In this document: piece after piece, positions 8,680 through 57,165 of the stretch
Layout: every line of letters begins with the position of its first letter
How positions within the stretch are numbered: the stretch's first letter is position 1
NCBI GenBank assembly: GCA_029860045.1
Contig: JAOUBY010000003.1
Coordinates: forward strand, 65-64,064
Length of the DNA stretch: 64,000 nt
Direction of reading: 5' to 3'
Source of the DNA: Gammaproteobacteria bacterium
GTDB lineage: Bacteria; Pseudomonadota; Gammaproteobacteria; UBA9214
Made by a program: the position numbers and the translations under genes
The notes under the pieces: model-generated
Database searches by the model: none
Seen by the model: only the letters and a program-made list of their open reading frames with translations
What the model was told of the DNA's origin: nothing

Positions 8680-11516
8680 TGTCGGACAACGAGCGCACAC
8701 GGACGCAGCAAGCGATGCCCCGGGGGAACAGGAAGATGTTTGCAAATCACTGGTATTACCGGATGGTCCTGATTATCGGACTGCTTGTGCCCGGAGCGGT
8801 TTTAAGTGCTGTTGCCACAGCGCAGGACTACCTTGAGGATGCCCTGACCCTTTTCGACAAGGGCGAATACAATGCCGCGCTTATCCAGCTGAAGAATGTA
8901 TTGCTGCTGGAGCCGGACAACGCCGGGGCATACCTGTTGCTGGGCAAGGCCCACCTTGAAAGGGGCGATGCCGCCTCGGCTGAAAGGGAAATCTCCCGTG
9001 CCCGTGACCTGGACCTTGATGCGGCCGAGTGGATGGCGCCACTGGGAAGGGCCTGGCTGCTGCTGGGAAGGAATGATGAGCTGCTGAAAGAGCTAACGCC
9101 TGAGGAGCGATTCCCCGACACCGTGCGCGCCGATATCCTGCAACTGCAGGGGCAGGCCCATCTCGCCAAGCGGCAGTTCCGGGAGGCCGATGACAAATTT
9201 TTTGCTGTCCTGGTGTTACAGCCCGGCAACCCCGAGGCCTTGCTGGGGAGGGCGCGTATTGCCTACCACAGGCAGGAAAGGGAGAAAGCCTCTGAACTCA
9301 TTGAAGAGGCATTGCAGCGCGATCCACGCAATGCGGATGCCTGGATGATGAAAGGTGGCCTGTTGAGCGGTGCGGGCGATCAAAAGGGTGCCATCAGTGC
9401 CTACCGGCGGGCACTGGATATTGACCCGGAAATGAGTGCCGCCCGTGCCGGGAAGACCGCGGCGCATATTGCGCTGGGTGAGTATGCCCCGGCCCTTGCA
9501 GAGATCGCGGCAATCCGCGGGCGCTATCCGGATAATTACATGGCACATTACCTGGAGGCGCTGGTGCACTTCCGGAAACAGGACATGAACCGGGCGCTGA
9601 CCTCCATCCATAATGCCCTGGGTGCAGCGCCACGCCACTTGCCGAGCCAGTTACTGGCCGGTTCTATCTATTACCGGAAGGGTCAGTATCGTCAGGCAGA
9701 GGAGTATCTTCGAAAGTATTGGAATGCTCGTCCGGGCGAAATCCAGGCCACCAGGCTGCTGGCAGTTTCGCTGGTGAAAACCGGCCAGGCAGAGGATGCC
9801 ATCACGGTCCTTGAAAAGGGTGTTGAGATTGAGCCGGATGACGCCCAGATGCTGGCCATACTGGGCAGTTTGTACACCCGTACCGGGCAGGCAAACAAGG
9901 GGCTCGACTACCTGGAGAGGGCAACCGCCGCCGCGCCGGATTCCGGCGCAATACTGACCGAACTCGCCATCGGGCACCTGGCAACCGGGGATGCCGGCCA
10001 GGCCGTTACGGAACTGCAGGGGGCAGTGGAACTCGGGGATGAGTTTATCCAGGCAGACACCCTGCTGGTGCTGATGCATCTCAAGCGGGGCAATACGGGG
10101 GATGCATTACGCAGCGCCGAACACTTCGTCAGCAATCACCCGGACAATGCCGTTGCCCGGAACCTGCTGGGCAGTGCCTACCTTGCAAAGAGGGACTACC
10201 CGGCGGCGCGTGCCGCCTTCGAGCAGGCGCTGGCGCTGGATGACGCCTTGGTACCGGCCCTGCTGAGTCTTGCGGGTATCGACCAGCTCCAGGGTGACAG
10301 GACATCGGCGGAGCAGCGCTACCGGGCGGTGCTCAAGCAGGACGAGGGCAATCTGAAGGCATTGCTGGCACTGGGGAAACTGGCGGTCGAACAGGACGAT
10401 AAGGCGGCGGCCAAGGATTTCCTGCTGCAGGCGCGCGGCAGCCATCCGGATGCCATCAAACCCGCGCTGTTGCTGGTTGAACTCTACCGGCAGGACCAGG
10501 ATATCAAGCGGGCACTGGATCTGGCGCGGAGCGTGGGTAAAGCTCATCCACGTAATCCCGGGGTGTTAAAGGTCCTGGCGCGTGCCCAGATCGACGCCGG
10601 TGAAATCGATGCGGCCATTACCAGTTTGCGAACGCTGACTGAGGTCGCGCCGCTTTCTGCGCAGGCGCATTATCAGATTGCGCTGCTCTACCTGCGACAG
10701 AAGAACAGAGCGGCGACCCGGGAGAGTCTCGAGCGGGCGATTGCATTACAGGCTGATTATCCGTCCGCGCAGCTTGCCCTTGGCAGGTTCGAAATCGTGG
10801 GAAAAAACTATGCCGTGGCGCAAAAGATAGCCGAGGCCCTGCAGCAGGCCCATCCACAGGCCGCGGGTGGCCATGCACTCGAAGGCGATATCCTGGCCGC
10901 ACAGGGTCAAAATAAACCGGCGCTGGCCGCCTACAGGAAGGCATATGGTCTCAAGCCGAGTGCGCGGTTTGCGATTAATATTTTCAACATGCAGCGCCGG
11001 GCAGGTGAGGGCAAGCAGGCCAGCGACACCCTGCAGAAATGGCTGAAGGATCATCCGGGGGACAACGCCACCAGGATGGTGCTGGCCACACACCTGCAAC
11101 AGCAGAAACGGCTGGATGAGGCGACCACAGAATATCTGGCGATACTCGGACAGGACCCGGATAATATTACGGCATTGAGCAACCTTGCCTGGCTCTATCA
11201 AAAACAGGGCTCCGACAAGGGCATCGCCTATGCCGAACAGGCCTATGAACTGGCCCCGCAGCGCGCGGAGGTCATCGACATCCTCGGCTGGCTGCTGGTG
11301 CAGAACGGTCAGCACCAGCGCGGCCTGGTGCTGCTGCAGGAGGCAGCGACCCTCGCCCCGCGGGAGGCCGGGATTCGTTACCATATGGCCGCCGCCCTGG
11401 TGAAGGTCGGGCGCACCGAGGAGGCGCGCAAGGAGCTGGAGCGGTTGCTCGGCGGAAAGGATTTCCCTGCCGCCGGCGAGGCCCGGTCACTGCTGGAGCG
11501 GCTGAGACGCCCGTGA
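8679..11516 (+). CDS. prsT: PEP-CTERM system TPR-repeat protein PrsT (secreted); start ambiguous (8679-8736)
   Basis: About 945 aa of TPR repeats, with a signal-peptide-like segment MFANHWYYRMVLIIGLLVPGAVLSAVATAQ. Position directly after prsR matches the conserved prsK-prsR-prsT order. Confidence 0.85.
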   Translation: MSDNERTRTQQAMPRGNRKMFANHWYYRMVLIIGLLVPGAVLSAVATAQDYLEDALTLFDKGEYNAALIQLKNVLLLEPDNAGAYLLLGKAHLERGDAASAEREISRARDLDLDAAEWMAPLGRAWLLLGRNDELLKELTPEERFPDTVRADILQLQGQAHLAKRQFREADDKFFAVLVLQPGNPEALLGRARIAYHRQEREKASELIEEALQRDPRNADAWMMKGGLLSGAGDQKGAISAYRRALDIDPEMSAARAGKTAAHIALGEYAPALAEIAAIRGRYPDNYMAHYLEALVHFRKQDMNRALTSIHNALGAAPRHLPSQLLAGSIYYRKGQYRQAEEYLRKYWNARPGEIQATRLLAVSLVKTGQAEDAITVLEKGVEIEPDDAQMLAILGSLYTRTGQANKGLDYLERATAAAPDSGAILTELAIGHLATGDAGQAVTELQGAVELGDEFIQADTLLVLMHLKRGNTGDALRSAEHFVSNHPDNAVARNLLGSAYLAKRDYPAARAAFEQALALDDALVPALLSLAGIDQLQGDRTSAEQRYRAVLKQDEGNLKALLALGKLAVEQDDKAAAKDFLLQARGSHPDAIKPALLLVELYRQDQDIKRALDLARSVGKAHPRNPGVLKVLARAQIDAGEIDAAITSLRTLTEVAPLSAQAHYQIALLYLRQKNRAATRESLERAIALQADYPSAQLALGRFEIVGKNYAVAQKIAEALQQAHPQAAGGHALEGDILAAQGQNKPALAAYRKAYGLKPSARFAINIFNMQRRAGEGKQASDTLQKWLKDHPGDNATRMVLATHLQQQKRLDEATTEYLAILGQDPDNITALSNLAWLYQKQGSDKGIAYAEQAYELAPQRAEVIDILGWLLVQNGQHQRGLVLLQEAATLAPREAGIRYHMAAALVKVGRTEEARKELERLLGGKDFPAAGEARSLLERLRRP

Positions 11517-11603
11517 ATTAAAACCTGGCACGACCTGCAGGTGCTGTAACTTGTGTTAAGTACCGGGGGCGTCAATTCTTATAAGGAACAGAAGGGATTC
11601 ATC

Positions 11604-14399
11604 ATGATTTCAAGATCGAGCAGACTGACAGTCGTTACTTCCACCATGCTGATGGTGCTTACCCTGTTGCTCGGCGGCTGCAGCGAGTCCCTCACCGATG
11701 CCGAGCACCTGGTGCGGGCCAGGGATCATATCGACGAAGGCGATGTCAGTGCCGGTATGATCGAGCTCAAAAACGCACTCAAAGTCAATCCAGGGAATGT
11801 CGAGGCGCGCTGGCTGCTGGGCAAGACCTATGTCGAAATCGGCCATATCGTGGGGGCAGCGAAGGAATTACGCAAGGCCGAAGAGCTCGGCATCGACCGC
11901 TCGGCGATTCTGTTGCCGCTGGCGCACACGCTTATCGCGATGCGCGGCTACCAGACGGTGCTGGACGAGTACCTGCCCGTGCCGGGCCTCGCCGAGGAAG
12001 AGGTGGCAGAACTGAAAGCACTCCACGGCCATGCCCACCTGGGTCTGGGTGATCTGAAACAGGCCGCCGCGACCTATGAGGAGGCCCGGACACTCAATCC
12101 GGAGGAAGCCGAGGCCTGGTACGGGCTGGCGCAGGTTGACATATTCAAGCGTGAGTGGGATGGCGCACGCAGCAACCTCGACAAGGCCCTGGAACTCGAT
12201 CCCCGCTTCGCGAATGCCTGGAGCCTGTCCGGTGACCTGGCACGGCGACAGGGGGACGCGGCGCGGGCAGAGGCGGATTACGGCAAGGCGATCGCCAACC
12301 GGGTGTACAACAGCCAGGATCACTTCAAGCGGGGTCAGGTCCGTTTACAGCTGAAAAAATACGATGCGGTGAAACAGGATATCGCGGCGATCCGTGCGCA
12401 GGTGCGGCGCAGTGCCCAGGCCAGCTACCTGCAGGGCCTGATCCACCTGCAGCAGGACCGGATCACCGAGGCACAGACGTCGTTCGAGACTGCTCTGGCC
12501 GTCAATCCCGATTACATGCAGGCGGTCTACTATCTAGGCGTGGTCCACTATCTGGCGCAGAACCATCAGCAGGCCAGCACCCATCTTGCCAGGTACTCGG
12601 CCTCCAATCCCGGCTACATCCCGGCGCGGCAGCTGCTGGCGATCCTCGACATGCGCCAGGGTGACTATGCCTCTGCCAGGGAGCGGGTTACGCCGATCCT
12701 GGAACAGCAGCCGGAGAATGCCGTCGCCCTCAAGCTGATGACCAGCATCGCCATGCGGCAGGGGGAGAACGACGAGGTTGTTGAATACCTGCGCAGGTTC
12801 GATGAACTCGAGGCCGGCTCCGCCCAGGCCAGCCTGAACCTGGGGCTCGGGCTGATCGCCGAGGGCGAGGGCGAGCAGGGCATGCTGCAGCTCGAGCAGG
12901 CGCTCGAGCTCGATGCCGATCTCAAAATGGCCGACTTCGCCCTGATCATGAACCACCTGAAGCAGGGACGGCCGGACGAGGCCCTGGCGGCCGCCCGGGA
13001 CTTCACCACCCGCCATCCCGAGAGCCCCATGGCGTGGAACCTGCTGGGTTATGTCCAGTTGCAGGGCAAACAGGTCGAGGCGGCCCGCGCGAGTTTCCAG
13101 CGCGCACTGAAGATAAGCTCCGGCGATCCCGGGGCGGCCAACAACCTGGCCTCGCTGGCCCTGCTGGACGGCGACACCGGCGAGGCCATCCGACAGTATG
13201 AATCGATCCTCGAACGCCGGCCGGATCACATGCGCACCGTGGTGAAGCTCGGCAGGCTGCTGGTCTCGCTGAAACGCTTCGATGAGGCACAGGCGCTTTA
13301 CGAGGCCAGGGTCGAGGCACATCCAGATGCAGTCGATCCGCGGGTGCTGCTGGCGGAGATCCATATGCTGCAGGGGCAACCCGGCAGGGCGCTCGCCCTG
13401 CTGCGGGCGGCCCCGGAGTCGGTCACTGATCACCCGGCCTACCTGGCCGTGCTGGGAAAGGGCCAGCTTGCGGCCGGTGAGCTCGCCAGTGCCATCCGCA
13501 GCCTGGAACGGCTGATCAAGGTCCGGCCAGGCTACCTGCCGGCCCACGATATGCTTGCCGGGGCCTACGCCAGGCAGGGCAACCTGGGCAAGCTCGAGGC
13601 CAGCCTCGACCAGGCGCTGGCCATCCGGCCCGGTCACCTGCTGGCGCGGCTCGGCATGCTGAAGCTGCTCGTCCAGCAGAAGCGGGCCGGGGAGGCGGCC
13701 GAACTGCTGGCGGCCCTCAAGGCGGACTACCCGGAACTCCCGGAACTCTATATCCAGGAGGCGCTGCTCGCGCAGGCCGAGGGTCGGCCGCAGGCGGCGG
13801 TACCGGCCTACCAGGAGGCCGTGAAGCGCGCACCAAGTACGGAACTGGTGAGCGACCTGGCGCTGGCCCAGTGGAAGGCCGGACAGCCGGAGGCCGGCCT
13901 ACAGACCCTGAAGGACTGGCTCGCCGGGCACCCCGATGACCTTGTCGTACGTTACAACCTGGCAAACCTGTACATGGCGACCGGGCGGCACGCGGAGGCG
14001 CGCGTGGCCTTCACGACGGTGGTTGAAGCACGACCGAAGCATGTACTGGCGCTGACCAACCTGGCGCTGCTGAGCCGGAATTTGGATCCCGGCAAGGCCT
14101 ATGATTATGCGAAACGCGCCCACGAGCTCGCGCCCGATGCACCACTCGTTCAGGACGCCCTGGCGCAGATCCATCTCGACCGGGACGAGGGCACACAGGC
14201 GCTGCGCCTGCTCGAGACGGCCGTGGAAAAATCGCCGCAGGACCTGCAGATCCGTTTCCACTGGGCGCAGGCCCTGGCCCGCAACGGCGAGAAGGAGAAG
14301 GCAAGACGGGAACTCACCCGCGTCCTGGCGGAGGACAGGCGATTCGCCGGTAAATCGGAGGCACGGGATATGCTGGAACAACTCTCCAGCGGCAAGTAA
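11604..14399 (+). CDS. Second PrsT-like TPR-repeat lipoprotein (tandem paralog)
   Basis: TPR repeats throughout; start chosen at ATG 11604 (AGGGA 6 nt upstream), giving MISRSSRLTVVTSTMLMVLTLLLGGCSES with the lipobox LLGGC. About 930 aa. Confidence 0.8.
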   Translation: MISRSSRLTVVTSTMLMVLTLLLGGCSESLTDAEHLVRARDHIDEGDVSAGMIELKNALKVNPGNVEARWLLGKTYVEIGHIVGAAKELRKAEELGIDRSAILLPLAHTLIAMRGYQTVLDEYLPVPGLAEEEVAELKALHGHAHLGLGDLKQAAATYEEARTLNPEEAEAWYGLAQVDIFKREWDGARSNLDKALELDPRFANAWSLSGDLARRQGDAARAEADYGKAIANRVYNSQDHFKRGQVRLQLKKYDAVKQDIAAIRAQVRRSAQASYLQGLIHLQQDRITEAQTSFETALAVNPDYMQAVYYLGVVHYLAQNHQQASTHLARYSASNPGYIPARQLLAILDMRQGDYASARERVTPILEQQPENAVALKLMTSIAMRQGENDEVVEYLRRFDELEAGSAQASLNLGLGLIAEGEGEQGMLQLEQALELDADLKMADFALIMNHLKQGRPDEALAAARDFTTRHPESPMAWNLLGYVQLQGKQVEAARASFQRALKISSGDPGAANNLASLALLDGDTGEAIRQYESILERRPDHMRTVVKLGRLLVSLKRFDEAQALYEARVEAHPDAVDPRVLLAEIHMLQGQPGRALALLRAAPESVTDHPAYLAVLGKGQLAAGELASAIRSLERLIKVRPGYLPAHDMLAGAYARQGNLGKLEASLDQALAIRPGHLLARLGMLKLLVQQKRAGEAAELLAALKADYPELPELYIQEALLAQAEGRPQAAVPAYQEAVKRAPSTELVSDLALAQWKAGQPEAGLQTLKDWLAGHPDDLVVRYNLANLYMATGRHAEARVAFTTVVEARPKHVLALTNLALLSRNLDPGKAYDYAKRAHELAPDAPLVQDALAQIHLDRDEGTQALRLLETAVEKSPQDLQIRFHWAQALARNGEKEKARRELTRVLAEDRRFAGKSEARDMLEQLSSGK

Positions 14400-15886: not shown

Positions 15887-16729
15887 ATGAGTTACAAGCT
15901 GATCAAGGACCGGTACTTCGCCACCCTCGGCTGGACCAACCGGGAAAACGCCAGCGATGCCAAGGTGGCCTTCATGAACGACGTCGACATGACGTCGGCC
16001 ATCCGGCTGCGAGAGAAATACACGGACCTGAAACCGTCCTATACTGCCCTGCTGGCACGGGCCATCGCCCTGGCGATACGGGAACATCCCAAGGCCAACC
16101 GGATGGTGCTGGCATTGCCGTTCTACAAGCGGATCGTGCAGTTCGACGCGATCAATATCACCATCGCCATCGAGCAGCAGCAGAAAGATGCAAGCAAGGA
16201 CACGGTACTCGCCGACACGGTATACCATGTCGATCAGAAGTCACTGTCCGACATCATGGTCCAGCTGCACGAGATGGCCCGGGCGACACCCGAAAACAAT
16301 CCGCGTCAGCGTCAGCTGGCCTTCATTGTGGAGAAGCTGCCCAACTGGCTGGCCCTGCTGCTGATCAGCATTCCGCGCTGGTTCCCGGGCATGTGGGTGC
16401 AGCACCGGGGCGGCTCCGTGCTGATCTCCTCGCCCTGCAAATACGGTGTCGAGCGGCTGGTCGCGAACTGGAGCTGGCCGATCGGCTTTTCCTTCGGCCT
16501 GCTGAGAAAACAGCCCGTGGTGGTGGCTGACGAAGTCGTTGTCCGGCCCGTCATGAGCGTGACCATGAGCTTCGACCGCCGGGTGCTGCTGGGGGCGCCC
16601 GCCGCCAGGTTCTTCAAGCGGGTCTGCGACCTGCTGGAGAATGCGGAGGAAACGCTGGATATGGATAGCCCTGCAACGCCCGCGATGCAGGAAGGCCGCA
16701 ACGCGGCGGCGAGGGAAGATGTGGCATAA
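15887..16729 (+). CDS. 2-oxoacid dehydrogenase E2 catalytic-domain-like (CAT-fold) protein with substituted catalytic His
   Basis: Start at ATG 15887 (AGGAAG RBS). The C-terminal SFDRRVLLGAPAARFFKRV aligns to the E2/CAT motif sFDHRviDGaxaarF with His->Arg and Asp->Leu changes; length of about 280 aa fits a stand-alone catalytic domain. Confidence 0.5.
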   Translation: MSYKLIKDRYFATLGWTNRENASDAKVAFMNDVDMTSAIRLREKYTDLKPSYTALLARAIALAIREHPKANRMVLALPFYKRIVQFDAINITIAIEQQQKDASKDTVLADTVYHVDQKSLSDIMVQLHEMARATPENNPRQRQLAFIVEKLPNWLALLLISIPRWFPGMWVQHRGGSVLISSPCKYGVERLVANWSWPIGFSFGLLRKQPVVVADEVVVRPVMSVTMSFDRRVLLGAPAARFFKRVCDLLENAEETLDMDSPATPAMQEGRNAAAREDVA

Positions 16730-16911
16730 CGGATGAACAGGGTCGGGCACCGCGTTACGTTTAGCTGTCCCCCGTCCGGGCACCACGTGTTGTCTCCGCT
16801 GCAGATTGCTGCAGCACCGGGTGGGCCAGCCAGGAAATTCATTAATCAGCACTGGTGATTGCACCAGTCTGACCGGCTGTCGGGGTGAGCCCTATCCACG
16901 TCGGTATTCCG

Positions 16912-16942
16912 AAAAAAAGCCGCGGCAGTTGCCGCGGCTTTT
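16912..16942. terminator. Bidirectional rho-independent terminator between convergent genes
   Basis: aaaaaaaGCCGCGGCAgttGCCGCGGCtttt: a perfect GC hairpin flanked by an A-run on one side and a T-run on the other. Confidence 0.7.
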
Positions 16943-16995
16943 GTCTGGTGAAGGGGCAGGCAGGCTGCCCCTGTCTAGCGGGTTTCCCGGTCGGT

Positions 16996-18792
16996 CTACT
17001 GCCTCAGATCGAACCCGGTGGGCGGATGAATCTGCCAGTTGCCGCCATCGATGTAGCCGAACACCTCGTAAATCGGGCCGTTTATCTTCTCGGCCGCAAT
17101 CGCATCGAAGTTGTCCAGGTTACCGTCTGCATCGAATTCCGGCTCGACACCGCAGTAGATACGGATGCGGTAGAAGTCCGGGCATTCAGTACTGGGATCG
17201 TTGTCGGTTTTGCAGGTGAACTCGTTGTAAGTGCCGGTGAGCACCGCGTCAACCCGACTCCCCGCACCGTTGTAGCTCGAAAAGGCGTCTGTCCCCGTCC
17301 CCTCGGCCGGGCACTGTACCGGGTCGGCGATGACGTGCTGACCTTCACGCCCGAATTCGCCGTGGTCCTCGATGTGGATCTCTGCCCAGTTGTAGGTTCC
17401 GAGTCCCCGTTCGCTGGGTTTGCCATGAAGCGTGGTCACCGATGCGCAGTCACCGCCACCGTTCAGGTTACCTTCATCGATGATGTTCCTGAAGGTACCG
17501 ATGCCGGCAAAGTCGATTTGCTTGGCGGGGGCTGGACGGGCCTGGCGGCACCAGCCCGGGTCACTGCACTGGATGATGTCGATCTCGGTGCCCGGAGGCG
17601 CGCTGGCCGTCCCCATGTGGAAGGCCCACTGTCCGGACGGACCTGCATGGTTGACATGCTCAAGTTCGCCCTTGGGCTGTGGCTGCTGGCCGGTGTTGGC
17701 GCCGGCCTGTCCACCGAAGGTGTAGACATCGTAGCTGGTCTCCTCCGTGACGGAGACCCTACCGCTATTGCCCATCACCTTGACGACGGTCTCGGTGACG
17801 GCAAACGAGCCCGATGCCGGGGTCCCGTCCCAGCCGGCAATACCCAAGGGTGACAAGCCGGACGTGTCGTTACCGCCGCCGGTGACCCGGCAGCCGACGC
17901 CATCCACAATCTCGGCGGGCTGGAACGCGTTGTTGGGGTCGGTCTGGTTCATGCCGTCCGTGCCACTGGTCCAGTTGATGTTGCCCGGCGTCGAGGCTGT
18001 CGTGCCGGTATCGGTGTCCATGTTGCGGGACGGATTGGTCTCGTTGTAATTCAGCTCCAGCTGGGTCGTGAAGTCGATAATCGAACCCTTCTCCAGGTCC
18101 GGAAAGTAGTTCGGATCAAAGTCGCTCACTAGTATGCGCGCCTGTTCCGCACCACCGACGAACGGTGTGGTCGTGCTACCCCAGTTATCAGTGCCGAAGG
18201 CATCCAGCAGTCCGCTGTTGTTCTCATCTGCAAAGGAGCCGGAATAGTACGTCTCGAAGGGGGTGTCCCACAATATCGCACCCTCCAGGATCACATCACC
18301 GTCCGTGTAGCCAGTACCCTCGAGAGCACTGGAATTGACGTTGCTGTCACGGTAGAAGCGAACGAAGTTCTCGTCGTTTTCATTGTCCGTCGCATTGCTG
18401 AAACTGAGATCGAGTCTGCTCGCGCCGTTCTGCATGATCTTCAGGGGCCAGCCCATGACCATGGTGACCTCGTAATTCGAGTTGAGTCCGAACAGGCCCA
18501 ACGGGTTGCCGTCCGGGTCCTGGGTGCCCTGCAAGGCAGCGTGCCGGTAGGTCATCACCTGGTCAGCCGTGTTCACATCTCCGCTAGCGGGATCAACCGC
18601 GCCCTTGAACAGGATGGTGTTGACCGACCAGTCGAAGGTACTGATCAGTACACCGTTGTCGCCCCCCGTACCCTGCGGATCAAAGGTGATCGGACTGGTT
18701 TGCAGGGGGGGCAGTGCTGCATTGCTGGTGACGGAGGCCATTCCGAGCACTGCGGCGATAATGAGAGAGATTCTCGATGTAGGGTGTTTCAT
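16996..18792 (-). CDS. Secreted Asp/Gly/Thr-rich protein, paralog of the adjacent PEP-CTERM protein but without a PEP-CTERM sorting signal
   Basis: Signal peptide MKHPTSRISLIIAAVLGMASVTSNAA. The N-terminal 300 aa share blocks with the neighbouring gene (AALQG.QD/AD.GGNP, LLD.FG.DNW, NETNPS). C-terminus ends ...GGNWQIHPPTGFDLRQ with no VPEP/TM/Arg tail. Strong AAGGAG RBS. Confidence 0.75.
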   Translation of the reverse strand: MKHPTSRISLIIAAVLGMASVTSNAALPPLQTSPITFDPQGTGGDNGVLISTFDWSVNTILFKGAVDPASGDVNTADQVMTYRHAALQGTQDPDGNPLGLFGLNSNYEVTMVMGWPLKIMQNGASRLDLSFSNATDNENDENFVRFYRDSNVNSSALEGTGYTDGDVILEGAILWDTPFETYYSGSFADENNSGLLDAFGTDNWGSTTTPFVGGAEQARILVSDFDPNYFPDLEKGSIIDFTTQLELNYNETNPSRNMDTDTGTTASTPGNINWTSGTDGMNQTDPNNAFQPAEIVDGVGCRVTGGGNDTSGLSPLGIAGWDGTPASGSFAVTETVVKVMGNSGRVSVTEETSYDVYTFGGQAGANTGQQPQPKGELEHVNHAGPSGQWAFHMGTASAPPGTEIDIIQCSDPGWCRQARPAPAKQIDFAGIGTFRNIIDEGNLNGGGDCASVTTLHGKPSERGLGTYNWAEIHIEDHGEFGREGQHVIADPVQCPAEGTGTDAFSSYNGAGSRVDAVLTGTYNEFTCKTDNDPSTECPDFYRIRIYCGVEPEFDADGNLDNFDAIAAEKINGPIYEVFGYIDGGNWQIHPPTGFDLRQ

Positions 18793-18893
18793 TGTTCTTT
18801 CTCCTTAAAATCTGTTCTTTTGATACTACAAGTAAAGCCTATGGGTCAGGGATTTCAAGTCAGTACCCGGGGTATGCCGGTTGCCTGCTCCGA

Positions 18894-18923
18894 TAAAAAA
18901 AGGGGAGGCTATACAGCCTCCCC
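18894..18923 (-). terminator. Rho-independent terminator downstream of the PEP-CTERM protein gene
   Basis: On the minus strand GGGGAGGCTgtatAGCCTCCCC is followed by TTTTTTTT. Confidence 0.75.
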
Positions 18924-18977
18924 TTGTTACGGATTGGCTCGATACAAAATCCTTGAGCCTTGGACCATCCCCGGGGC

Positions 18978-20261
18978 TTACGCCTTCAGGGTGGTGGTCC
19001 GGCGGCGGCGGACGCCGTTCAGGCCCATGAGACCCATGCCCATGCCCAGCAGGGCGATCGTACCCGGCTCCGGAACCCGCGTGATGCGGAAGGCCTGGTT
19101 GGCATCGGTCTGGAAGATGACATCTTCGCCAGTTAATGGCAAGAAGCACTCCTCCACAGTTCCGCCAGCAACTAGGCAATCATTGAAAGCCTGATTGGTG
19201 GCAGGATCGCCACCATTAAGAAAGTCCTGGGCGGTGAGCACTGTGCCATCAGTCAGAACGATGGTGTCCAGGTCGGCGAAGGTAATTTCCCCTTCCTGCA
19301 GGCAGACCAGGTCGGCACTGCTTGCGCCCGCCGTGTTGTCATAGCAGAACGACGGATTGGTCTCGTTGAAGGGAATCACGTTCTCGGTGCTGAACGTCGT
19401 ATCAAAGAATATCGAAGCAAGCAGATCCTTGAAGAAGGCAAAATCCTGGAAGGCCACTTCCGCCTCGAGGTCGGTGGCGCCCTCACCAGTCACGGTGAAA
19501 GTGATGTCACCGGCCGCTGGCTCGCCTGCCCAGTTGTCGACGCCAAAGGAGTCCAGCAGGGCTGGGTCTAAGATCTGATCGCCGGTGGTGAACAACCCGT
19601 TCCCGTCCAAGTCGACAAAGGTGTACTGAGTGCTCGTAAAATTACCCGAGATATCACCCAGCTGCGAGGAGCTCATGATCAACTGCCCATCGTCAAAGCC
19701 GGTTCCACTCAGGATGTCGGACTTTTGACCTGAGGCATCCCCCAGGTCGTCGTAGTAGAGCTCGAAGAAGATATCCTCCGAAGCGAGGGAGAACGTCTGA
19801 GTGCCTCCAATTTCATATATATCGTTACCGCTACCATCCGTCCCAATAAGAGTGCTGCTGAATGAGGCATCCGTAACCAATTCTGTGCCACCGAAGACAT
19901 AGGTCCATTCCCACAAATTGTTGATGCCAAGGGGGCTACTCGGGTTGCCACCTGCATCGGCATAGCCCTGCAATGCGGCTTGGCTATAGACTTCGAAGCT
20001 GCAATTGGTACCATTCAGGGTGGGGCCAGAAGCACCACAATCACCGCCGCTTGTAATAAAGTCTTCACCGGCCGTCATGGAACCTATCGTCAGGCTGGAC
20101 CCCACCGCCCAGTCAAGGGAGCCGACCTCTTCGTTACCAGTCAGACCGTCGCTACCGGTGAAGTCGATCGTGACTGTATCGGTGGGTTCACCTAACGCCA
20201 GCGCGGAGGTGCTCGCGAGGGCCATTGATACTCCCACGGCCACAAAGGAAATTTTATTCAT
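18978..20261 (-). CDS. PEP-CTERM domain protein (exosortase substrate), secreted
   Basis: Signal peptide MNKISFVAVGVSMALASTSALA. The C-terminus RVPEPGTIALLGMGMGLMGLNGVRRRR is a textbook PEP-CTERM signal (VPEP, TM helix, Arg cluster). AAGGAG RBS. Confidence 0.9.
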   Translation of the reverse strand: MNKISFVAVGVSMALASTSALALGEPTDTVTIDFTGSDGLTGNEEVGSLDWAVGSSLTIGSMTAGEDFITSGGDCGASGPTLNGTNCSFEVYSQAALQGYADAGGNPSSPLGINNLWEWTYVFGGTELVTDASFSSTLIGTDGSGNDIYEIGGTQTFSLASEDIFFELYYDDLGDASGQKSDILSGTGFDDGQLIMSSSQLGDISGNFTSTQYTFVDLDGNGLFTTGDQILDPALLDSFGVDNWAGEPAAGDITFTVTGEGATDLEAEVAFQDFAFFKDLLASIFFDTTFSTENVIPFNETNPSFCYDNTAGASSADLVCLQEGEITFADLDTIVLTDGTVLTAQDFLNGGDPATNQAFNDCLVAGGTVEECFLPLTGEDVIFQTDANQAFRITRVPEPGTIALLGMGMGLMGLNGVRRRRTTTLKA

Positions 20262-20340
20262 TGTCCTTACTCCTTAAAATGTCAGTGCCAGCTTGCATTT
20301 GCTTGTTTGTGTCTGGCGGATTCATGTCTCGCATGTTAAT

Positions 20341-20357
20341 AAGCACGACTCGTGCCA
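20341..20357 (-). promoter_or_regulatory. sigma54 (RpoN) -24/-12 promoter for the PEP-CTERM protein gene
   Basis: Minus-strand TGGCACGagtcGTGCTT: 7/7 match to TGGCACG, canonical GG-N10-GC spacing, -12 GTGCT vs TTGCW. About 85-100 nt upstream of the ATG at 20261; a sigma54 activator (prsR) is encoded in the locus. Confidence 0.6.
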
Positions 20358-21041
20358 GCCTTGTAAATAGCAATAAAAACAGGTGGATGTAAACCGGTAT
20401 CCGGACTGCACAGTATGCTAAGGACGGTAGTTGTAAATAATCATGACAGATGTGCCTGTGAAACGCTTCGCAGGCTACACCACAGGGAATCATCCAGGTG
20501 TCGTTGTCACCAGCCGCTACCGAAAACAGCAGATCTGGTGATCGATCATGTCTGATTGGAAACAGGGATATTACATAACTATCAGAAAATAAAGGGAATT
20601 ACATGGTTTGCCGAGGCTGGTTGCAGCAGGAGACCGAAGAGTGTCGCTCCTCACGACGCCTTCGGAGTGTATAAAAAATTGACATAATCGAGGGAGGTCG
20701 GCCATGCCGCATGGGGTCACAGGGAGTTACCGCAGCGTATTTTGCTTTAGAGCCCGTATATTGTCTCCCCCCCCTCTCTCTCCCCTGGCCGTTACCCGAA
20801 GCCACAGGCTAAAGCCGGTGGAGTATTCACATAAATCAAAGTCGGGAGTCCCGGTTGGCTTCCAGCCAGCTTGCCAGGCTGGAAATTATTCGGTACGTTG
20901 CCGTACGGGGCAGTGCCGCTGTTCGTGTCGTGGGCGGAAGCGCGGCTGTAATCAATATTGACGATTTTCCGCCGCCGGGGCGTCATGCCACCATCGCGGC
21001 CGCATCCGGGCGAACCGCAGAGAGAGGAGGGACCTCAGCGC

Positions 21042-21755
21042 ATGAATCGCACCCCGGGCCGTGAGTATTTCCTCTTCGATACGCTGTTCAACCTGGTAGA
21101 ACTCGGCCTCTATGCCCTGAGCCTCGCGGGGCCGGTGGCACTGCTCTGGGAACTGCGGGGGGCGGGCTTGCCGTGGCTGGTGCTGCTGGCCGTACTCCTG
21201 TGGCCGTTGGCGGGTGTTGTTTTCGGCGCCCTGCTGGTGATTCTTGCGCGGGCGCTGGTCTGGCGATGGCCCCGCGGACGGATGCTGCTGACCAGCCGCC
21301 GGGCCATCGCCTGGTTCGTGCTCGACCGGTTCATGAAGATGATGTATCGGAGCCCGTTTCGCGTGCTACTGGAGGCGAACAACCTGCTGCGCCTGCTGTT
21401 CTACCGGGGCATGGGTGCTGGGCTGGACTGGACCTTCATGGCAGGTCAGGGCGTCAAACTCACCGAACCCTGGCTGGTCAGGCTGGGGCGTAATGTGCTT
21501 TTGGGCGATGGTGCCCACCTTGCCGCCCACAAGGTCGAGGGCAATGTCGTGACGCTGGATGAAATCGAGATCGGTGATGGCACGGTCATTGGCGCCGGGG
21601 CCATTATCTTTCCCGGATGCCGTATAGGCAACAACGTGACGGTGGGCGCCAGGTCGACGGTGAGTCGGGGGACGGTGATACCGGATGGAGAAACCTGGGT
21701 CGGCATCCCGGCGCGGAAACTCGACTACTTCTCTCGTTCTAAATCGCAGGGGTAG
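21042..21755 (+). CDS. Membrane-anchored hexapeptide-repeat (left-handed beta-helix) acyl/acetyltransferase
   Basis: N-terminal hydrophobic helices (LAGPVALLWEL...LVLLAVLLWPLAGVVFGALLVILA) and C-terminal LbH repeats (LGDGAHLAAH...IGDGTVIGAGAIIFPGCRIGNNVTVGARSTV). Start chosen at ATG 21042 with a GGAGGGA RBS; the track start 20958 is a TTG. Confidence 0.7.
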   Translation: MNRTPGREYFLFDTLFNLVELGLYALSLAGPVALLWELRGAGLPWLVLLAVLLWPLAGVVFGALLVILARALVWRWPRGRMLLTSRRAIAWFVLDRFMKMMYRSPFRVLLEANNLLRLLFYRGMGAGLDWTFMAGQGVKLTEPWLVRLGRNVLLGDGAHLAAHKVEGNVVTLDEIEIGDGTVIGAGAIIFPGCRIGNNVTVGARSTVSRGTVIPDGETWVGIPARKLDYFSRSKSQG

Positions 21756-22015: not shown

Positions 22016-23239
22016 ATGTCAATGATTGTTCTGGCGCTGCGCAATCTGTTTCGGCATTGGAAACGGACGGCCATTGCCCTGGCCGCCATTGGTTTTGGCG
22101 TGATTGCCCTGTTGCTTGCAGGCGGGTTCATCGATTGGATCTTCTGGGGTATGCGGGAGGGGGCTATCCAGTCACGCCTCGGCCATATACAGATCACCCG
22201 CCCCGGCTATTTTGAAACTGGAAGTGCGGATCCTTTTGCGTACCTGCTACCCGATCAGCTAAACGAAGAGGAAATTATCGGGTTGCGGCCCGAGATTCGA
22301 GTAATTACACCACGCTTGGCATTCAACGGCCTGATCAGCCATGGCGATGTCACGATTGGATTTTCCGGCGAAGGTGTGGATCCCGAAAAAGAGGCATCCG
22401 TCAGTCAGCATTTAATCATCACAAAGGGTGAGAACCTTGGCCCGGATGATCCGACAGGCCTGTTGCTGGGTGCCGGGTTGGCTGACAACCTTGGTGTAAC
22501 CGTGGGGGATAGTGTGGTCCTGCTGGCGAATACGGCATCCGGCGGGTTAAGTGGTGTTGAAGGGCCGGTGCGTGGCTTGTTCCAGAGTGCATCGAAGGCA
22601 TTTGATGACGCCGCGTTGCGGGTGCCGGTTGATACTGCCAGAAGCCTGTTGCGGGTCTCCAGTGCCCATAGCTGGGTACTGTTACTGGATGAAACCGAAA
22701 AAACAGATGAGGTTCTGCTGTATCTGCAGGAACGCTTCCCGGTATCGGAAAGCGGTTTGCAGTTCACTCCCTGGTACGCACTGGCCGATTTCTATAACAA
22801 GACAGTTGCCTTGCTCTCCCGGCAAATGAGCGTGGTCCAGCTGATCATCGCCCTCATTATTGTACTCAGTATCTCCAATACCCTGGTGATGAGCGTGCTT
22901 GAAAGAACCGGCGAGACGGGGACGTTGATGGCCATCGGAGTCAGGCGTCGAAGAATATTGCATATGTTTGTTACTGAAGGTCTGTTATTGGGAGTGATAG
23001 GTGGTTTGGGTGGGGTTGCCGTGGGAGGCTTGTTGGCCATGGTCATATCAGCTGTCGGCATCCCGATGCCACCCCCGCCCGGTATGGATGTGGGCTTTAG
23101 CGGGAAGATCCTGCTTAGTTGGCCACTGATTGCCGGAGTGATGGCGCTTGCCATTGGAACAACATTATTGGCGAGCCTCTACCCGGCCTGGAAGGCTTCG
23201 CGCCTGGAGATTGTAAATGCGTTGCGCCATAACCGATAA
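22016..23239 (+). CDS. ABC transporter permease, FtsX/LolC/LolE (MacB-type) family
   Basis: MSMIVLALRNLFRHWKRTAIALAAIGFGVIALLLAGGF N-terminal TM, a large periplasmic domain and three C-terminal TM helices: LolC/E topology. Confidence 0.85.
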   Translation: MSMIVLALRNLFRHWKRTAIALAAIGFGVIALLLAGGFIDWIFWGMREGAIQSRLGHIQITRPGYFETGSADPFAYLLPDQLNEEEIIGLRPEIRVITPRLAFNGLISHGDVTIGFSGEGVDPEKEASVSQHLIITKGENLGPDDPTGLLLGAGLADNLGVTVGDSVVLLANTASGGLSGVEGPVRGLFQSASKAFDDAALRVPVDTARSLLRVSSAHSWVLLLDETEKTDEVLLYLQERFPVSESGLQFTPWYALADFYNKTVALLSRQMSVVQLIIALIIVLSISNTLVMSVLERTGETGTLMAIGVRRRRILHMFVTEGLLLGVIGGLGGVAVGGLLAMVISAVGIPMPPPPGMDVGFSGKILLSWPLIAGVMALAIGTTLLASLYPAWKASRLEIVNALRHNR

Positions 23240-23298
23240 ATCTAACTACGGGACGACATTATGATTTCAGTCCATATTATGAGTGTCAGTTAATTACC

Positions 23299-24510
23299 AT
23301 GTTTCTGCTGGCATTCCGCAGTATTTTCCGTCACAAGGTAAGAACCGGTTTGACCCTTGCCGCTATTATCTTCGGTGTGGGCAGCCTGGTTCTCATCGGC
23401 GGTTTTGTTGAGGACATTTTTATTCAGTTGCAAGAGGCAACAGTTCATTCGCAGCTCGGCCACATTCAGGTCTATCGTTCAGGTTATACAAAGCTGGGGC
23501 GACGCAACCCTTACGGGTATCTGATTGATAAGCCGGAGCAGATATTGGAGTCTGCCGCTGATTTACCCCAGGTGTCAGATCAACTCCTGCGGGTGAAATT
23601 CGCAGGTCTGGCGAATAATGGTCGTGCGGACCTGCCAGTGATAGGGGAAGCTGTCCAGCCTGACAAGGAGGCGCGACTCGGAAGCGCGATGACTATCACC
23701 AGTGGCAGGCAGCTTACCGGTAATGACCCCCACGGTATTCTTGTCGGTCAGGGGGTGGCGGATGCCTTGCAACTCGAGCCGGGTGATTATCTTACCTTGC
23801 TTGTCAACACAACCGACGGTGTACTTAATAGTCATGAGTTCGAGGTGATTGGTATATTCCGGACTTTTGCCCGTGATTATGACAACCGTGCTGTTCGCAT
23901 TTCACTGGTTTCCGGACAGGACCTGATTGGGACCAGTGGAGTGCACAGCGTCGTGCTGTCACTTGACACCACTGAAGCCACGGACTCTGTGGCAAGGGCC
24001 CTGCAACAACAACTCACCCCGCAGGACTATGAAGTAAGAACATGGTATGAGCTTTCCGATTTTTACGGCAAGACAGTTAATCTTTACCGCAGGCAATTTA
24101 CCGTCCTGCAGCTCATCATCCTGTTGATGGTCCTGTTAACCGTGGCAAACAGCGTGAACATGGCGATCTACGAGCGTATCGGGGAATTTGGCACCCTGAA
24201 GGCCCTGGGCGACAGGCAGCGGGATATCTTCCGGCAGGTCATGAAGGAAAATATGCTGCTGGGTCTGCTTGGTGCGGGTTTGGGAGTGGCTATCGGTGTC
24301 GCACTGGCATGGGCGATATCCGGGGTCGGGATAGACATGCCGCCACCGCCGAATTCCGATGTGGGTTATACCGCCTACATTCGCCTGGTTCCCGGGGTGA
24401 TTGCTATGGCCTTCGGGGTTGGCGTTATTGCGACGGTGTGTGCTGCACTGTTACCCGCCTGGCGTGTCTCGCGACTGCCCGTGGCCGAGGCCTTGCGGGA
24501 GAATGTGTGA
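23299..24510 (+). CDS. Second FtsX/LolC/LolE-type ABC permease (tandem paralog)
   Basis: Same architecture as the previous gene (MFLLAFRSIFRHKVRTGLTLAAIIFGVGSLVLIGGF...). Confidence 0.85.
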   Translation: MFLLAFRSIFRHKVRTGLTLAAIIFGVGSLVLIGGFVEDIFIQLQEATVHSQLGHIQVYRSGYTKLGRRNPYGYLIDKPEQILESAADLPQVSDQLLRVKFAGLANNGRADLPVIGEAVQPDKEARLGSAMTITSGRQLTGNDPHGILVGQGVADALQLEPGDYLTLLVNTTDGVLNSHEFEVIGIFRTFARDYDNRAVRISLVSGQDLIGTSGVHSVVLSLDTTEATDSVARALQQQLTPQDYEVRTWYELSDFYGKTVNLYRRQFTVLQLIILLMVLLTVANSVNMAIYERIGEFGTLKALGDRQRDIFRQVMKENMLLGLLGAGLGVAIGVALAWAISGVGIDMPPPPNSDVGYTAYIRLVPGVIAMAFGVGVIATVCAALLPAWRVSRLPVAEALRENV

Positions 24511-24523
24511 GGTCCGAAGGGCG

Positions 24524-25378
24524 CTATCTCGCTAGTTTTTTCAGATAATTCTTGGTAAAGGTCTTGTCCGGCAGCTTGCGCAAGCGCATGCCGCTGTAGT
24601 CCATGACGGAACGGCCTTCCTTGTGCAGGGCATCTTCCATAATGAGTTGGGTCGGACGTATCGTGTTGCCAAAATTCTGGTAGGCCCGGAAGTGGCAGGT
24701 TTTTATCAGCCGGTTGGACAGGGTAAAAAACTCAGCCTTGAAGGGTCTGTAATTGGCCTGATTGACCCAGTAAAGCACGCGGTGGTATGTCACACCTCTG
24801 CGCGACGCCTTCAGTTCGAGTAAGTAATAGTTTTCTTTTCCGATAGTCTCGGTACGCAGCAGGGTGGGTTCATAGTCGCCGGTAAAGTTGGCACGCGCGA
24901 GGTCGCCATTGGCCACTTCGCCGGTGAGCTTTTGTGACAGGGGCAGGCGTACCGGCTGGGACAGGTTGGGGAGGAATGCCCACAGGTCATGATCGCGCAT
25001 GAGTAGAATGGTGCCCTTGTCGATGGCGGGCGCCGTGGTCATCAACAGGGTTCTGTCATTGCCTTTGGACAGTACCCGGTATTGCTTGACCTCGGGGTCG
25101 CGATCGGGCCCGGTGGTGGTGACCTTGATATCGACCTGGAACCCTTCTGCGGGGAAGCGGATCCGGTCCGCCTTTTCCACGATCTGTTGCGGGGTGAACT
25201 TTGCTGCTTTGGCCGCAAATACATGTGATGTCTGCCCGGATAAATTCCAGCACAATACAATTAACACGGCGGCTGCAATCCGCCCGTATCCTGGTAAAGA
25301 GCCTGGCTTGCCAGGCGTAGAGTGTGATTTTCCTGTCACTGTGGGTATCCGTAAAATGGTCAGGCTTGTGTTGCGCAA
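24524..25378 (-). CDS. LolA-like periplasmic outer-membrane lipoprotein-sorting/carrier family protein; start uncertain
   Basis: Signal segment IAAAVLIVLCWNLSGQTSHVFA and a soluble beta-rich domain resembling LolA-like lipoprotein-sorting proteins that commonly sit beside FtsX permease pairs. Convergent with the permease genes. Confidence 0.6.
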   Translation of the reverse strand: MRNTSLTILRIPTVTGKSHSTPGKPGSLPGYGRIAAAVLIVLCWNLSGQTSHVFAAKAAKFTPQQIVEKADRIRFPAEGFQVDIKVTTTGPDRDPEVKQYRVLSKGNDRTLLMTTAPAIDKGTILLMRDHDLWAFLPNLSQPVRLPLSQKLTGEVANGDLARANFTGDYEPTLLRTETIGKENYYLLELKASRRGVTYHRVLYWVNQANYRPFKAEFFTLSNRLIKTCHFRAYQNFGNTIRPTQLIMEDALHKEGRSVMDYSGMRLRKLPDKTFTKNYLKKLAR

Positions 25379-25804: not shown

Positions 25805-26485
25805 ATGCTGAGTGACTTCCTGGTAAGTGTTAAGAAGGTCTCCAAGGAATATGCCTTCGGCAAACAGAAAGTACAGGCGCTCAGGGAGGTCTCCCTGGCC
25901 GTGCTCGGTGGCGAGTTTCTGGCGATTGCAGGGCCCTCCGGCAGCGGTAAGTCGACCCTTCTGAATCTGATCGGCTGTATTGATACGCCAACAACCGGCT
26001 CTATTTCTATAGAGAATCAGGAAACCGTTAACCAGACGCCCGACCAGTTGGCAGACCTGCGTGCCCGAAAAATCGGCTTCATATTCCAGACGTTCAATCT
26101 GTTACCGGTACTTTCCGCGTTTGAAAACGTGGAATACCCGCTGCTTCGCCTTAAACTGGACAAGACAGAACGGCATCAGCGCGTGTCTCAATATCTTGAA
26201 CTCGTCGGGGTGAACGAGTTTGCAACACACCGGCCTAACCAGCTAAGTGGCGGTCAGCGACAGAGAGTCGCCATAGCCAGGGCATTGATTGCCCAACCCA
26301 GTATTGTCCTGGCCGACGAACCAACGGCCAACCTCGATCACAGGACGGGCGAGGGTATCCTCGACCTGATGTCGCGTATCAACCGGGACAATGGCACGAC
26401 CTTTATCTTTTCCACACATGACGCCCGGGTGATCGAGATGGCCGGCCGGGTGGTCAGGCTAAGCGATGGTGAAATTGTTCAGTAA
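25805..26485 (+). CDS. ABC transporter ATP-binding protein (LolD/MacB-type ATPase)
   Basis: Walker A GPSGSGKST, ABC signature LSGGQRQRVAIARAL, Walker B ILLADEPT; 226 aa. Confidence 0.9.
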   Translation: MLSDFLVSVKKVSKEYAFGKQKVQALREVSLAVLGGEFLAIAGPSGSGKSTLLNLIGCIDTPTTGSISIENQETVNQTPDQLADLRARKIGFIFQTFNLLPVLSAFENVEYPLLRLKLDKTERHQRVSQYLELVGVNEFATHRPNQLSGGQRQRVAIARALIAQPSIVLADEPTANLDHRTGEGILDLMSRINRDNGTTFIFSTHDARVIEMAGRVVRLSDGEIVQ

Positions 26486-28579: not shown

Positions 28580-28848
28580 TAACCTGTTTCCGGGTTGCAA
28601 ATACCAATTTACGACATTGAATTCAGCATGGAAGCAGTTGCTGATCGATTCTGGCGCCCGACATGATTTCTACCAGGCAAAGTTCTGTGGCGCTAATAGT
28701 ATGTTGTGTCAGGTGGTGTGTCTAATGCTATTAAGAGGACTGACCTGGCGACGTCCTTCTGGCGTGACCATGCATTGACCTGTTTAATCGATGCCGGCTT
28801 TTCATGCCTGACCTGAAAGGCGGTTTCAGATGCCGGTATAACGTCAAT

Positions 28849-30096: not shown

Positions 30097-30112
30097 TGGC
30101 ACGATTATCGCA
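30097..30112 (+). promoter_or_regulatory. sigma54 (RpoN) -24/-12 promoter for acyltransferase copy 2
   Basis: TGGCACGattaTCGCA: 7/7 -24 element, canonical GG-N10-GC spacing, -12 TCGCA vs TTGCW. About 100 nt upstream of the ATG at 30215. Confidence 0.6.
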
Positions 30113-57161: not shown

Positions 57162-57165
57162 TAAC

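Follow-up and report, generated by a model that had tools for sequence, protein, structure and literature searches.

How does a bacterium come to keep, side by side, two genes for one exported ectodomain when only one of the two products ends in the signal for exosortase sorting? This question is raised by a stretch of 64,000 nucleotides (nt) of contig JAOUBY010000003.1 (assembly GCA_029860045.1, Gammaproteobacteria, UBA9214), referred to below as the window, whose gene content indicates a complete XrtA/PEP-CTERM exopolysaccharide locus. The two genes, named A and B here, lie in tandem on the minus strand with A upstream, and their products, with lengths in amino acids (aa), are composed as follows:

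18978-20261, minus strand: gene A, 427 aa, with a Sec signal peptide, a PepA-like beta-rich ectodomain, lineage-specific insertions, six Cys and a PEP-CTERM tail
18981-19076, minus strand: PEP-CTERM sorting signal of A (aa 396-427: VPEPGTIALLGMGMGLMGLNGVRRRRTTTLKA), recognised by PF07589 and TIGR02595
16996-18792, minus strand: gene B, 598 aa, with a signal peptide, a PepA-like ectodomain and a C-terminal domain, and no PEP-CTERM
17908-18717, minus strand: ectodomain of B (aa 26-295), homologous to the A ectodomain, all-beta, no Cys
16999-17907, minus strand: C-terminal domain of B (aa 296-598), which opens at CRVTGGG, ends in ...GGNWQIHPPTGFDLRQ and has six conserved Cys

A preliminary description of the window took the pair for a PEP-CTERM substrate and a longer paralogue, and proposed that they are the cell-associated and the released form of one protein, which is possible. 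The reading that we prefer, at a probability of about 0.5, is that they form a conserved two-gene module of the XrtA/PEP-CTERM system, in which A would be an abundant exosortase substrate and B a scarcer, exosortase-independent partner that brings its C-terminal domain into the same matrix. The presence of this domain suggests that B does something extra and is not just a free copy of A.

By their sequences the two proteins are true paralogues with one common ectodomain. Residues 3-316 of A aligned with residues 7-267 of B at 27% identity over 319 columns (BLASTP, E 1e-14), and the alignment scored 78.6 bits, when 200 shuffles of the B ectodomain gave 20.1±3.0 with a maximum of 31.2. Homology between A and B, with a common signal peptide and common N-terminal blocks, had been claimed from the letters alone, and its significance had been named beforehand as one of two points on which the claim could fall; both the alignment and the shuffles bear it out. 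When relatives of A and of B were added in a multiple alignment, the homology was seen to span the whole ectodomain of ~270 residues. It begins at the signal peptide and continues to the 'QTDxNxAF' strand just ahead of the tail, with the common blocks FDWxV, HxALQG, GLNxxYExT, NFFxxYYD, LxGxGYxDGxLIL, LDxFGxDNW, PFxETNPS and the last strand QxDxNNAF. Read from the sequence, both signal peptides are of the ordinary Sec type, ending in ...STSALA before LGEP in A and in ...VTSNA before ALPP in B. The AlphaFold2 model of B residues 26-295 had a predicted local distance difference test score (pLDDT) of 92 and a predicted template modelling score (pTM) of 0.90, and was all-beta with several long strands. 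Foldseek found nothing significant in the PDB for this fold (best E 0.02, template modelling (TM) score ≤0.2), nor did a profile search of PDB sequences find a match; a word-indexed profile search with the ectodomain alignment returned 6 proteins only and did not widen the family. Within the 64-kb window, tblastn found no further A/B paralogue.

The closest characterised protein is PepA, of which the ectodomain is a distant relative and not an equivalog, because 9 of the 23 tail-less ectodomains matched the NCBIfam model floc_PepA (NF033554; best E 9.9e-18), yet the 56.5 bits of A fall short of the 80 required of an equivalog, and B had no match. Gene A resembles PepA of Zoogloea resiniphila and Aquincola tertiaricarbonis (NF033554) in its Sec signal, its beta-rich ectodomain with much Asn, Thr and Gly, and its tail of VPEP, transmembrane helix and Arg, as well as in its putative sigma-54 promoter (TGGCAC...TGCTT), its place beside prsT/prsK/prsR and a stem-loop terminator 3' of the gene (PMC9850573). 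It differs from PepA in its larger size (427 aa vs under ~29 kDa) and in its Cys-containing insertions. Expression of PepA in Aquincola is RpoN-dependent, and the protein shifts exopolysaccharide out of the soluble fraction into the bound one; cleavage of its C-terminus has been suggested (PMC9850573). The papers that we read describe no PepA paralogue whose tail is replaced by a C-terminal domain.

Of the two proteins in the window, only A carries the tail, as first described: aa 396-421 scored 26.7 bits with PF07589 (cutoff 20.7) and 24.9 bits with TIGR02595 (cutoff 16), whereas B matched neither model at E≤1. A six-frame regex scan for the pattern of PEP, transmembrane helix and RR detected no other such tail in the window besides that of gene A. 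The Cys residues of A lie at positions 75, 87, 306, 320, 362 and 372, compared with zero in the B ectodomain. Two insertions of A are absent from B, a calcium-loop-like DLDGNGLFTTGD segment (A aa 211-222; 19596-19631, minus strand) and a Cys-containing block ahead of the final strand.

The C-terminal part of B is not the product of damage. A database search returned ~40 full-length B homologues, at 35-65% identity and including Marinobacterium and Geoalkalibacter, and because they have the same full-length architecture and the same C-terminal end, a frameshift, an indel or an assembly artefact was ruled out as the cause of the missing PEP-CTERM, in agreement with the earlier view that B is no frameshift product. 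The extension of B is ~303 aa long (residues 296-598) and not ~250 aa, as had been estimated. Across the homologues it starts with an invariant CRVTGGG and ends with ...GGN(L/W)QIHPPTGFDL(K/R/Q), essentially at the stop codon, and B ends like the others.

The comparison of the junctions shows how this end relates to the sorting signal. In A-type proteins the final strand leads into the tail with the pattern '...FQTDANQAF-xx-VPEP-hydrophobic helix-RRR', and B-type proteins have '...LLQIDPNNAF-x-F-[IL]PPE-x-A' followed directly by CRVTGGG. A PEP-like 'IPPE' is kept at the junction in many B homologues, and B of the window has a degenerate PEP-like version of it, AFQPAEIVDGVG followed by CRV. Because the VPEP, helix and RRR of the A type and the [IL]PPE and CRVTGGG of the B type follow the same final strand, B is the result of a domain swap at the sorting signal and not of a loss, with the membrane helix and arginine tail exchanged exactly at the PEP motif. 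The statement that B had lost, or never had, the sorting signal is therefore correct in that B is without PEP-CTERM, but it understates the difference, since at the PEP motif the tail gives way to a conserved and widespread domain of ~300 aa.

This domain is a real family that is rare, widely scattered and unannotated, with a length of ~300 aa, and its place in the protein is always C-terminal. Of 1.84 billion cluster representatives, searched exhaustively with phmmer, 292 matched it at E≤1e-3 and, with the stricter E≤1e-10, 244, and 63 domain-bearing loci were collected from 185,579 reference species. In most of these 63 loci the domain ends ≤5 residues from the stop codon. The hosts are scattered over Gammaproteobacteria, Aromatoleum, Nitrospirales, Planctomycetota, Latescibacterota, Krumholzibacteriia, Acidobacteriota and others, and the N-terminal partners of the domain include DUF11 repeats, SdrD-B-like, SpaA-like and DNRLRE domains and Cys-rich repeats, in proteins of up to 1,600 aa. 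Additionally, there are stand-alone forms that consist of a signal peptide and the domain only (P0144, P0195); together with the varied N-terminal partners, they fit an autonomous functional module. The signal peptides of P0144 and P0195 end in ...VKAC and ...VTAC right before the domain, which is lipobox-like, and some stand-alone domain proteins may be lipoproteins.

The domain alignment contains 27 invariant columns, with residues such as R7, T9, H84, D181, E184, Y246, Y280, Q292 and H294, and identity is ~50% across phyla; six Cys are conserved, and an invariant Cys opens the domain. Its AlphaFold2 model was reasonably confident (pLDDT 78.8, pTM 0.83) and mostly beta. No Pfam or NCBIfam model matched it at E≤1, including the sorting-signal and choice-of-anchor models, and precomputed Pfam annotations of domain-bearing homologues were confined to the N-terminal partners. 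A profile search of PDB sequences gave 0 matches, and Foldseek gave nothing significant either against the PDB (best E 0.07, TM 0.15) or against the viral models of BFVD (best E 0.11). Across the fold searches with the models of the ectodomain and of the C-terminal domain, matches to copper amine oxidase, heparinase and tail-tube folds were discarded at TM ≤0.2. When the flanking open reading frames (ORFs) of the 63 loci were clustered, no conserved partner gene emerged, only neighbours of the B-type loci (the hexapeptide acyltransferase and PrsT) and artefactual antisense ORFs. In one locus only (L005; 8641-9438, minus strand), a DsbA/thioredoxin-like gene adjoins a domain protein with a non-PepA N-terminus, which fits a disulfide-rich exported protein.

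The tandem itself is conserved. Among the reference genomes there are eight B-type loci, with a PepA-like N-terminus and the domain. All of the intact ones (7/7) have an A-type PEP-CTERM paralogue as their immediate upstream neighbour in the same orientation; they come from three Marinobacterium species, Aromatoleum toluolicum and three metagenome-assembled genomes (MAGs), one each of Porticoccaceae, Proteobacteria and Ectothiorhodospiraceae. The same A-B tandem is present in the metagenome contigs L001, L006 and L007. Identity between the A and B ectodomains ranges from 27 to 36%, with the pair of Marinobacterium profundum at 36% over 306 residues (E 8e-44). In a neighbour-joining tree the proteobacterial A-type and B-type ectodomains formed separate clades, and the tandem is found in several genera; the A/B split is therefore old and predates these genera. 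In Marinobacterium aestuariivivens (L066, 3303-4842) the B-type gene is broken up into three reading frames. The first of the breaks coincides exactly with the junction of ectodomain and C-terminal domain, and the upstream PEP-CTERM paralogue is intact; the broken gene is either a pseudogene or an assembly error. Geoalkalibacter was rejected as a case of the conserved pair, as the PEP-CTERM gene that adjoins its B-type gene is unrelated in sequence.

The start regions of the two genes required a separate explanation, as they are far more alike than the proteins:

20257-20280, minus strand: leader of gene A, ATTTTAAGGAGTAAGGACAATGAA
18788-18811, minus strand: leader of gene B, ATTTTAAGGAGAAAGAACAATGAA, 22/24 identical to that of A

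The near-identity of the leaders had been noticed; the pattern ATTTTAAGGAG.AAG.ACAATGAA occurs exactly twice in the window, at the start codons of A and B. The identity ends abruptly both upstream and downstream, and with the Shine-Dalgarno and the ATG set aside 13/15 positions still match, far above chance (estimate ~1e-6). The leader is composed of an AU-rich tract, a perfect Shine-Dalgarno and a 7-nt spacer, which add up to a strong translation-initiation region. AAGGAG with an ATG 5-9 nt downstream is found just three times in the window, two of them being A and B. The leader is common to the 92%-identical relative L007, but leaders are unrelated in the orthologous pairs of L001, L006 and the reference-genome loci. 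The proposal that the duplication included the 5' leader is thus not supported, the split being old: because orthologous pairs do not have the leader, it is not a relic of the duplication, and its identity is lineage-specific, the result of selection or of gene conversion. When metagenome contigs were scanned for the exact leader pattern, two unrelated AT-rich phage-like contigs came up, and the scan was uninformative, as it did not return the known relative L007. The leader of A also contains two GGA motifs (AAGGAGTAAGGACA) and that of B one (AAGGAGAAAGAACA). GGA motifs that overlap the Shine-Dalgarno are typical CsrA/RsmA targets in biofilm genes, and it is a speculation that the A and B leaders are such targets.

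The expression signals around the pair were located as follows:

20432-20437, 20388-20393 and 20362-20367, minus strand: three TTTACA hexamers, candidates for the PrsR-binding 'PEP-CTERM box' motif 1, upstream of the sigma-54 site
20342-20357, minus strand: sigma-54 type -24/-12 promoter-like site TGGCACGAGTCGTGCT, one mismatch to TGGCAC-N5-TTGCW, 80 nt before the A start codon
18893-18925, minus strand: intrinsic terminator between A and B, with an 11-bp G+C-rich stem, a 4-nt loop and a T7 run
16912-16972, minus strand: two hairpins after B, the first at 16952-16972 and the second, with a T-run and thus an intrinsic terminator, at 16912-16943

The site TGGCACGAGTCGTGCT before gene A closely resembles the promoter mapped for Aquincola pepA, TGGCAC/CTGCTT (PMC9850573). 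In proteobacterial PEP-CTERM genes a TTTACA-containing motif 1, at times repeated, is followed after a spacer of 32-92 nt by a sigma-54 motif (PMC1569441), which lies at a mean of ~71 nt from the start codon (Haft 2006, PMC1569441). Like these genes, A has a long upstream region with TTTACA and a sigma-54-like motif, at 80 nt vs the mean of 71. The TTTACA copies, matched with the hexamer alone and not with the full motif-1 profile, precede the sigma-54-like site by 4, 30 and 74 nt. Because the window contains 46 sigma-54-like matches vs 43 expected, which is not above chance, the argument for the sigma-54 site of A rests on its position and context. The preliminary description had seen no sigma-54 element before B, and indeed the gap between the genes (18793-18977) has no sigma-54-like site and no TTTACA. 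Furthermore, eight other loci have no sigma-54-like site between A and B, and a lone TTTACA occurs there in one of them (L058). No match to the sigma-70 consensus was found in 16700-20960, and TTGAAA-N17-TTACTT, picked by eye as a promoter for B, was too weak to count.

A hairpin and T-run equivalent to the terminator between A and B was found in L001, L006, L007, L008, L010, L011, L013 and L058, and L001, L006, L008, L010, L011, L013 and L058 repeat the full layout, in which promoter motifs precede A and the hairpin and T-run separate it from B. In Marinobacterium the A-B gap of ~80-130 nt is mostly occupied by the hairpin. This recurrent layout suggests that B is expressed by read-through, at a level below that of A. 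Behind B, the first hairpin begins 23 nt and the T-run hairpin 53 nt after the stop codon, instead of the 10 nt initially given.

The proposed module also involves three genes elsewhere in the window:

43927-45513, plus strand: exosortase XrtA fused to EpsI (TIGR03109, 307.9 bits, cutoff 208; TIGR02914 for EpsI), the presumed processing enzyme for A
5210-7309, plus strand: PrsK histidine kinase (TIGR02916, 773.9 bits), a presumed regulator of A
7306-8679, plus strand: PrsR sigma-54 activator (TIGR02915, 695.8 bits), a presumed regulator of A

In the module that we propose, A would be a Sec-exported, PepA-like, beta-rich matrix protein under sigma-54 transcription, and it probably belongs to the PrsK/PrsR regulon because its putative sigma-54 promoter is preceded by TTTACA boxes. 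Its tail would presumably be cut off by XrtA, encoded 24 kb away, and A would in this way be committed to the exopolysaccharide matrix. B would be independent of the exosortase and made in smaller amounts by terminator read-through, with the same strong ribosome-binding region, and it could join the same matrix via the common ectodomain, by binding either A or the polysaccharide ligand of A. The C-terminal domain of B would then be the delivered payload, serving either to bind a ligand or metal or in catalysis. We favour a payload over an anchor because the domain occurs alone behind a signal peptide and has enzyme-like invariant polar residues.

A comparable arrangement is known from fimbriae, where major subunit genes with a hairpin behind them form attenuating terminator operons. 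By analogy, the A-B pair resembles fimbrial-type operons of major and minor subunits in the order of a presumably abundant paralogue, an intrinsic terminator and a paralogue with an extra domain, and in the same strong ribosome-binding region. Unlike those operons, it has no chaperone-usher genes.

Several observations weigh against the module as we propose it. The domain always sits at the anchor position of other surface proteins, which favours a role in localisation, and it is without a fold or family match and without a conserved neighbour outside the B-type loci. In addition, the nearest TTTACA, at 4 nt from the sigma-54 site, is outside the 32-92 nt reported by Haft, and the distal copy at 74 nt alone fits. 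Lastly, our sigma-70 and sigma-54 scans were crude, and B could have an unrecognised promoter in the 100 nt that separate its start from the terminator.

The localisation of B by its own C-terminal domain is the alternative that deserves most attention, and although we consider it doubtful, it is a serious one because the domain is always at the anchor position and has an invariant Cys at the old PEP site. Here the domain would be a device that takes the place of PEP-CTERM and exosortase, either as a non-covalent anchor to a component of the envelope or matrix or by self-processing with its first Cys, and A and B would display one ectodomain by two alternative routes, as a 'choice of anchor'. 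The exact replacement of the sorting signal at the PEP motif, with 'IPPE' retained in many homologues, would be expected from this, as would the end of the domain, which in most of the 63 loci comes within 5 residues of the stop codon, and the position of the domain after stalk-like repeats (DUF11, SdrD-B-like, SpaA-like, Cys-rich), where Gram-positive adhesins have LPXTG. The invariant first Cys is usually preceded by a small residue, but that residue varies (G, A, S, P, D, E), and the six conserved Cys, an even number, suggest three disulfides and not a free nucleophile. Moreover, P0144 and P0195, with a signal peptide and the domain, have no passenger to anchor, no NCBIfam sorting-signal model matches the domain, and Foldseek detected no similarity in the PDB to Hint or intein structures, autotransporter barrels, C-terminal domains from type IX secretion systems (T9SS) or Slam-substrate barrels. 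The A/B pair is like 'choice-of-anchor' surface proteins and MSCRAMM-type adhesins in having one ectodomain with alternative C-terminal ends, and the domain elsewhere follows stalk-like repeats. Known ends of this sort comprise short tripartite signals, 25-40 aa in length, and T9SS domains of ~80 aa, whereas the domain of B is globular, disulfide-rich, 250-300 aa long and also stand-alone. A special form of this idea, that the domain is a cis substitute for the exosortase step, a self-contained attachment or self-processing module that opens with the invariant Cys right behind a vestigial PEP motif and needs no dedicated sorting enzyme, seems to us quite unlikely. If it were true, the A-B tandem would be a natural comparison of a trans route (XrtA) and a cis route for one ectodomain, and in other phyla the domain would couple DUF11 or SdrD-type stalks to the envelope or matrix.

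It is also unlikely that B is an enzyme that modifies or degrades the exopolysaccharide, with the ectodomain as a polysaccharide-binding targeting module and the domain as a new catalytic one (lyase, hydrolase or oxidoreductase), so that A and B would share a ligand specificity and not assemble. The many invariant polar residues and the identity of ~50% across phyla are a pattern typical of enzymes, secreted stand-alone forms exist, and the locus around the gene is one for polysaccharide biosynthesis, with glycosyl- and acyltransferases; however, most domain proteins are found outside polysaccharide loci and have no conserved neighbours, and neither sequence nor fold shows significant similarity to any enzyme. 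The top ectodomain matches in Foldseek include jelly rolls of heparinase I and ulvan lyase, but these matches are not significant and, with E≥0.02 and TM ≤0.2, amount to noise. The simplest account, a recent tandem duplication that included the leader and left one copy that lost, or never had, PEP-CTERM as a plain released version, draws on the tandem order, the common ectodomain and the 22/24 identical leader. We regard it as highly improbable, as the protein identity is just 27% with A and B types in separate clades, the same tandem is found in several genera with differing leaders in orthologous pairs, the 24-nt block is not accompanied by long tracts of A/B nucleotide identity, and B gained a conserved 303-aa domain common to ~290 protein clusters.

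The surroundings of the pair correspond to the PEP-CTERM/exosortase A system described by Haft 2006 (PMC1569441), with which the window shares XrtA-EpsI, PrsK, PrsR and PrsT, here present twice, and also the EpsB_2 glycosyltransferase, the export and chain-length proteins, the tyrosine kinase and the associated acyltransferases (PMC1569441). Other models of the XrtA system that were matched are TIGR03013, TIGR03007, TIGR03018, TIGR03016, TIGR03015, TIGR03006, TIGR03019, TIGR03087, TIGR03088, TIGR03108 and TIGR04063. On the upstream side of the pair are the TIGR03013 priming glycosyltransferase, PrsK, PrsR, the two PrsT, a glycosyltransferase and an acyltransferase-like gene; on the downstream side are two exosortase-associated acyltransferases and then the export, chain-length and tyrosine-kinase genes, and further downstream the XrtA-EpsI fusion, accompanied by signature glycosyltransferases and an amidotransferase. 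The individual genes and sites, with those next to the pair, are:

8679-11516 and 11553-14399, plus strand: two tandem full-length genes for the tetratricopeptide repeat lipoprotein PrsT (TIGR02917, 748.8 and 742 bits)
20958-21755, plus strand: membrane-anchored hexapeptide-repeat acyltransferase, divergent from A, with N-terminal membrane segments and a match to the Pls/PosA C-terminal-domain model
22016-24510, plus strand: two MacB/LolCE-like permeases
24524-25378, minus strand: an ORF without NCBIfam match
25805-26485, plus strand: LolD-like ATPase
26600-28600, minus strand: a 666-aa fusion of a ThiF/E1-like adenylyltransferase and an Acg/nitroreductase-like part (PRK08223 / Rv1355c family), inside the exopolysaccharide locus
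29056-29829 and 30215-30970, plus strand: tandem exosortase-associated acyltransferase genes (TIGR03694)
30097-30112: TGGCACGATTATCGCA, a sigma-54-like site with one mismatch, in the gap between the two TIGR03694 genes and ~100 nt ahead of the second

Eight further loci (L001, L003/L008, L009-L011, L013, L044, L058 and L066) also have the hexapeptide acyltransferase next to the pair, and it may modify A, B or the polysaccharide. In L001 the pair is flanked by the same permease pair and ATPase and by a TP_0789-like protein, and the doubling of PrsT is also present there. Within the run of polysaccharide genes, G+C falls to 0.43 at 57000-59000 vs ~0.55 elsewhere, and this stretch may be a horizontally acquired cassette of the polymerase or flippase type.

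Homologous pairs with and without PEP-CTERM have been reported before (Haft 2006, PMC1569441); the pair described here differs in that the PEP-CTERM-less member carries a specific conserved domain at the tail position and that the tandem is kept across genera. It is not a new kind of system. Within the PEP-CTERM/exosortase world, it is a conserved tandem in which the PepA-like sorting tail has been exchanged for an unannotated domain of ~300 residues. The effect of exosortase on PEP-CTERM proteins is still largely inferred, with the destination and the attachment partner unsettled, and a pair kept in several genera, with the XrtA signal on one ectodomain and another C-terminal domain on its paralogue, offers a clean natural contrast for exosortase sorting. 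Furthermore, defining the activity of the domain would annotate several hundred secreted proteins of sediment and marine bacteria.

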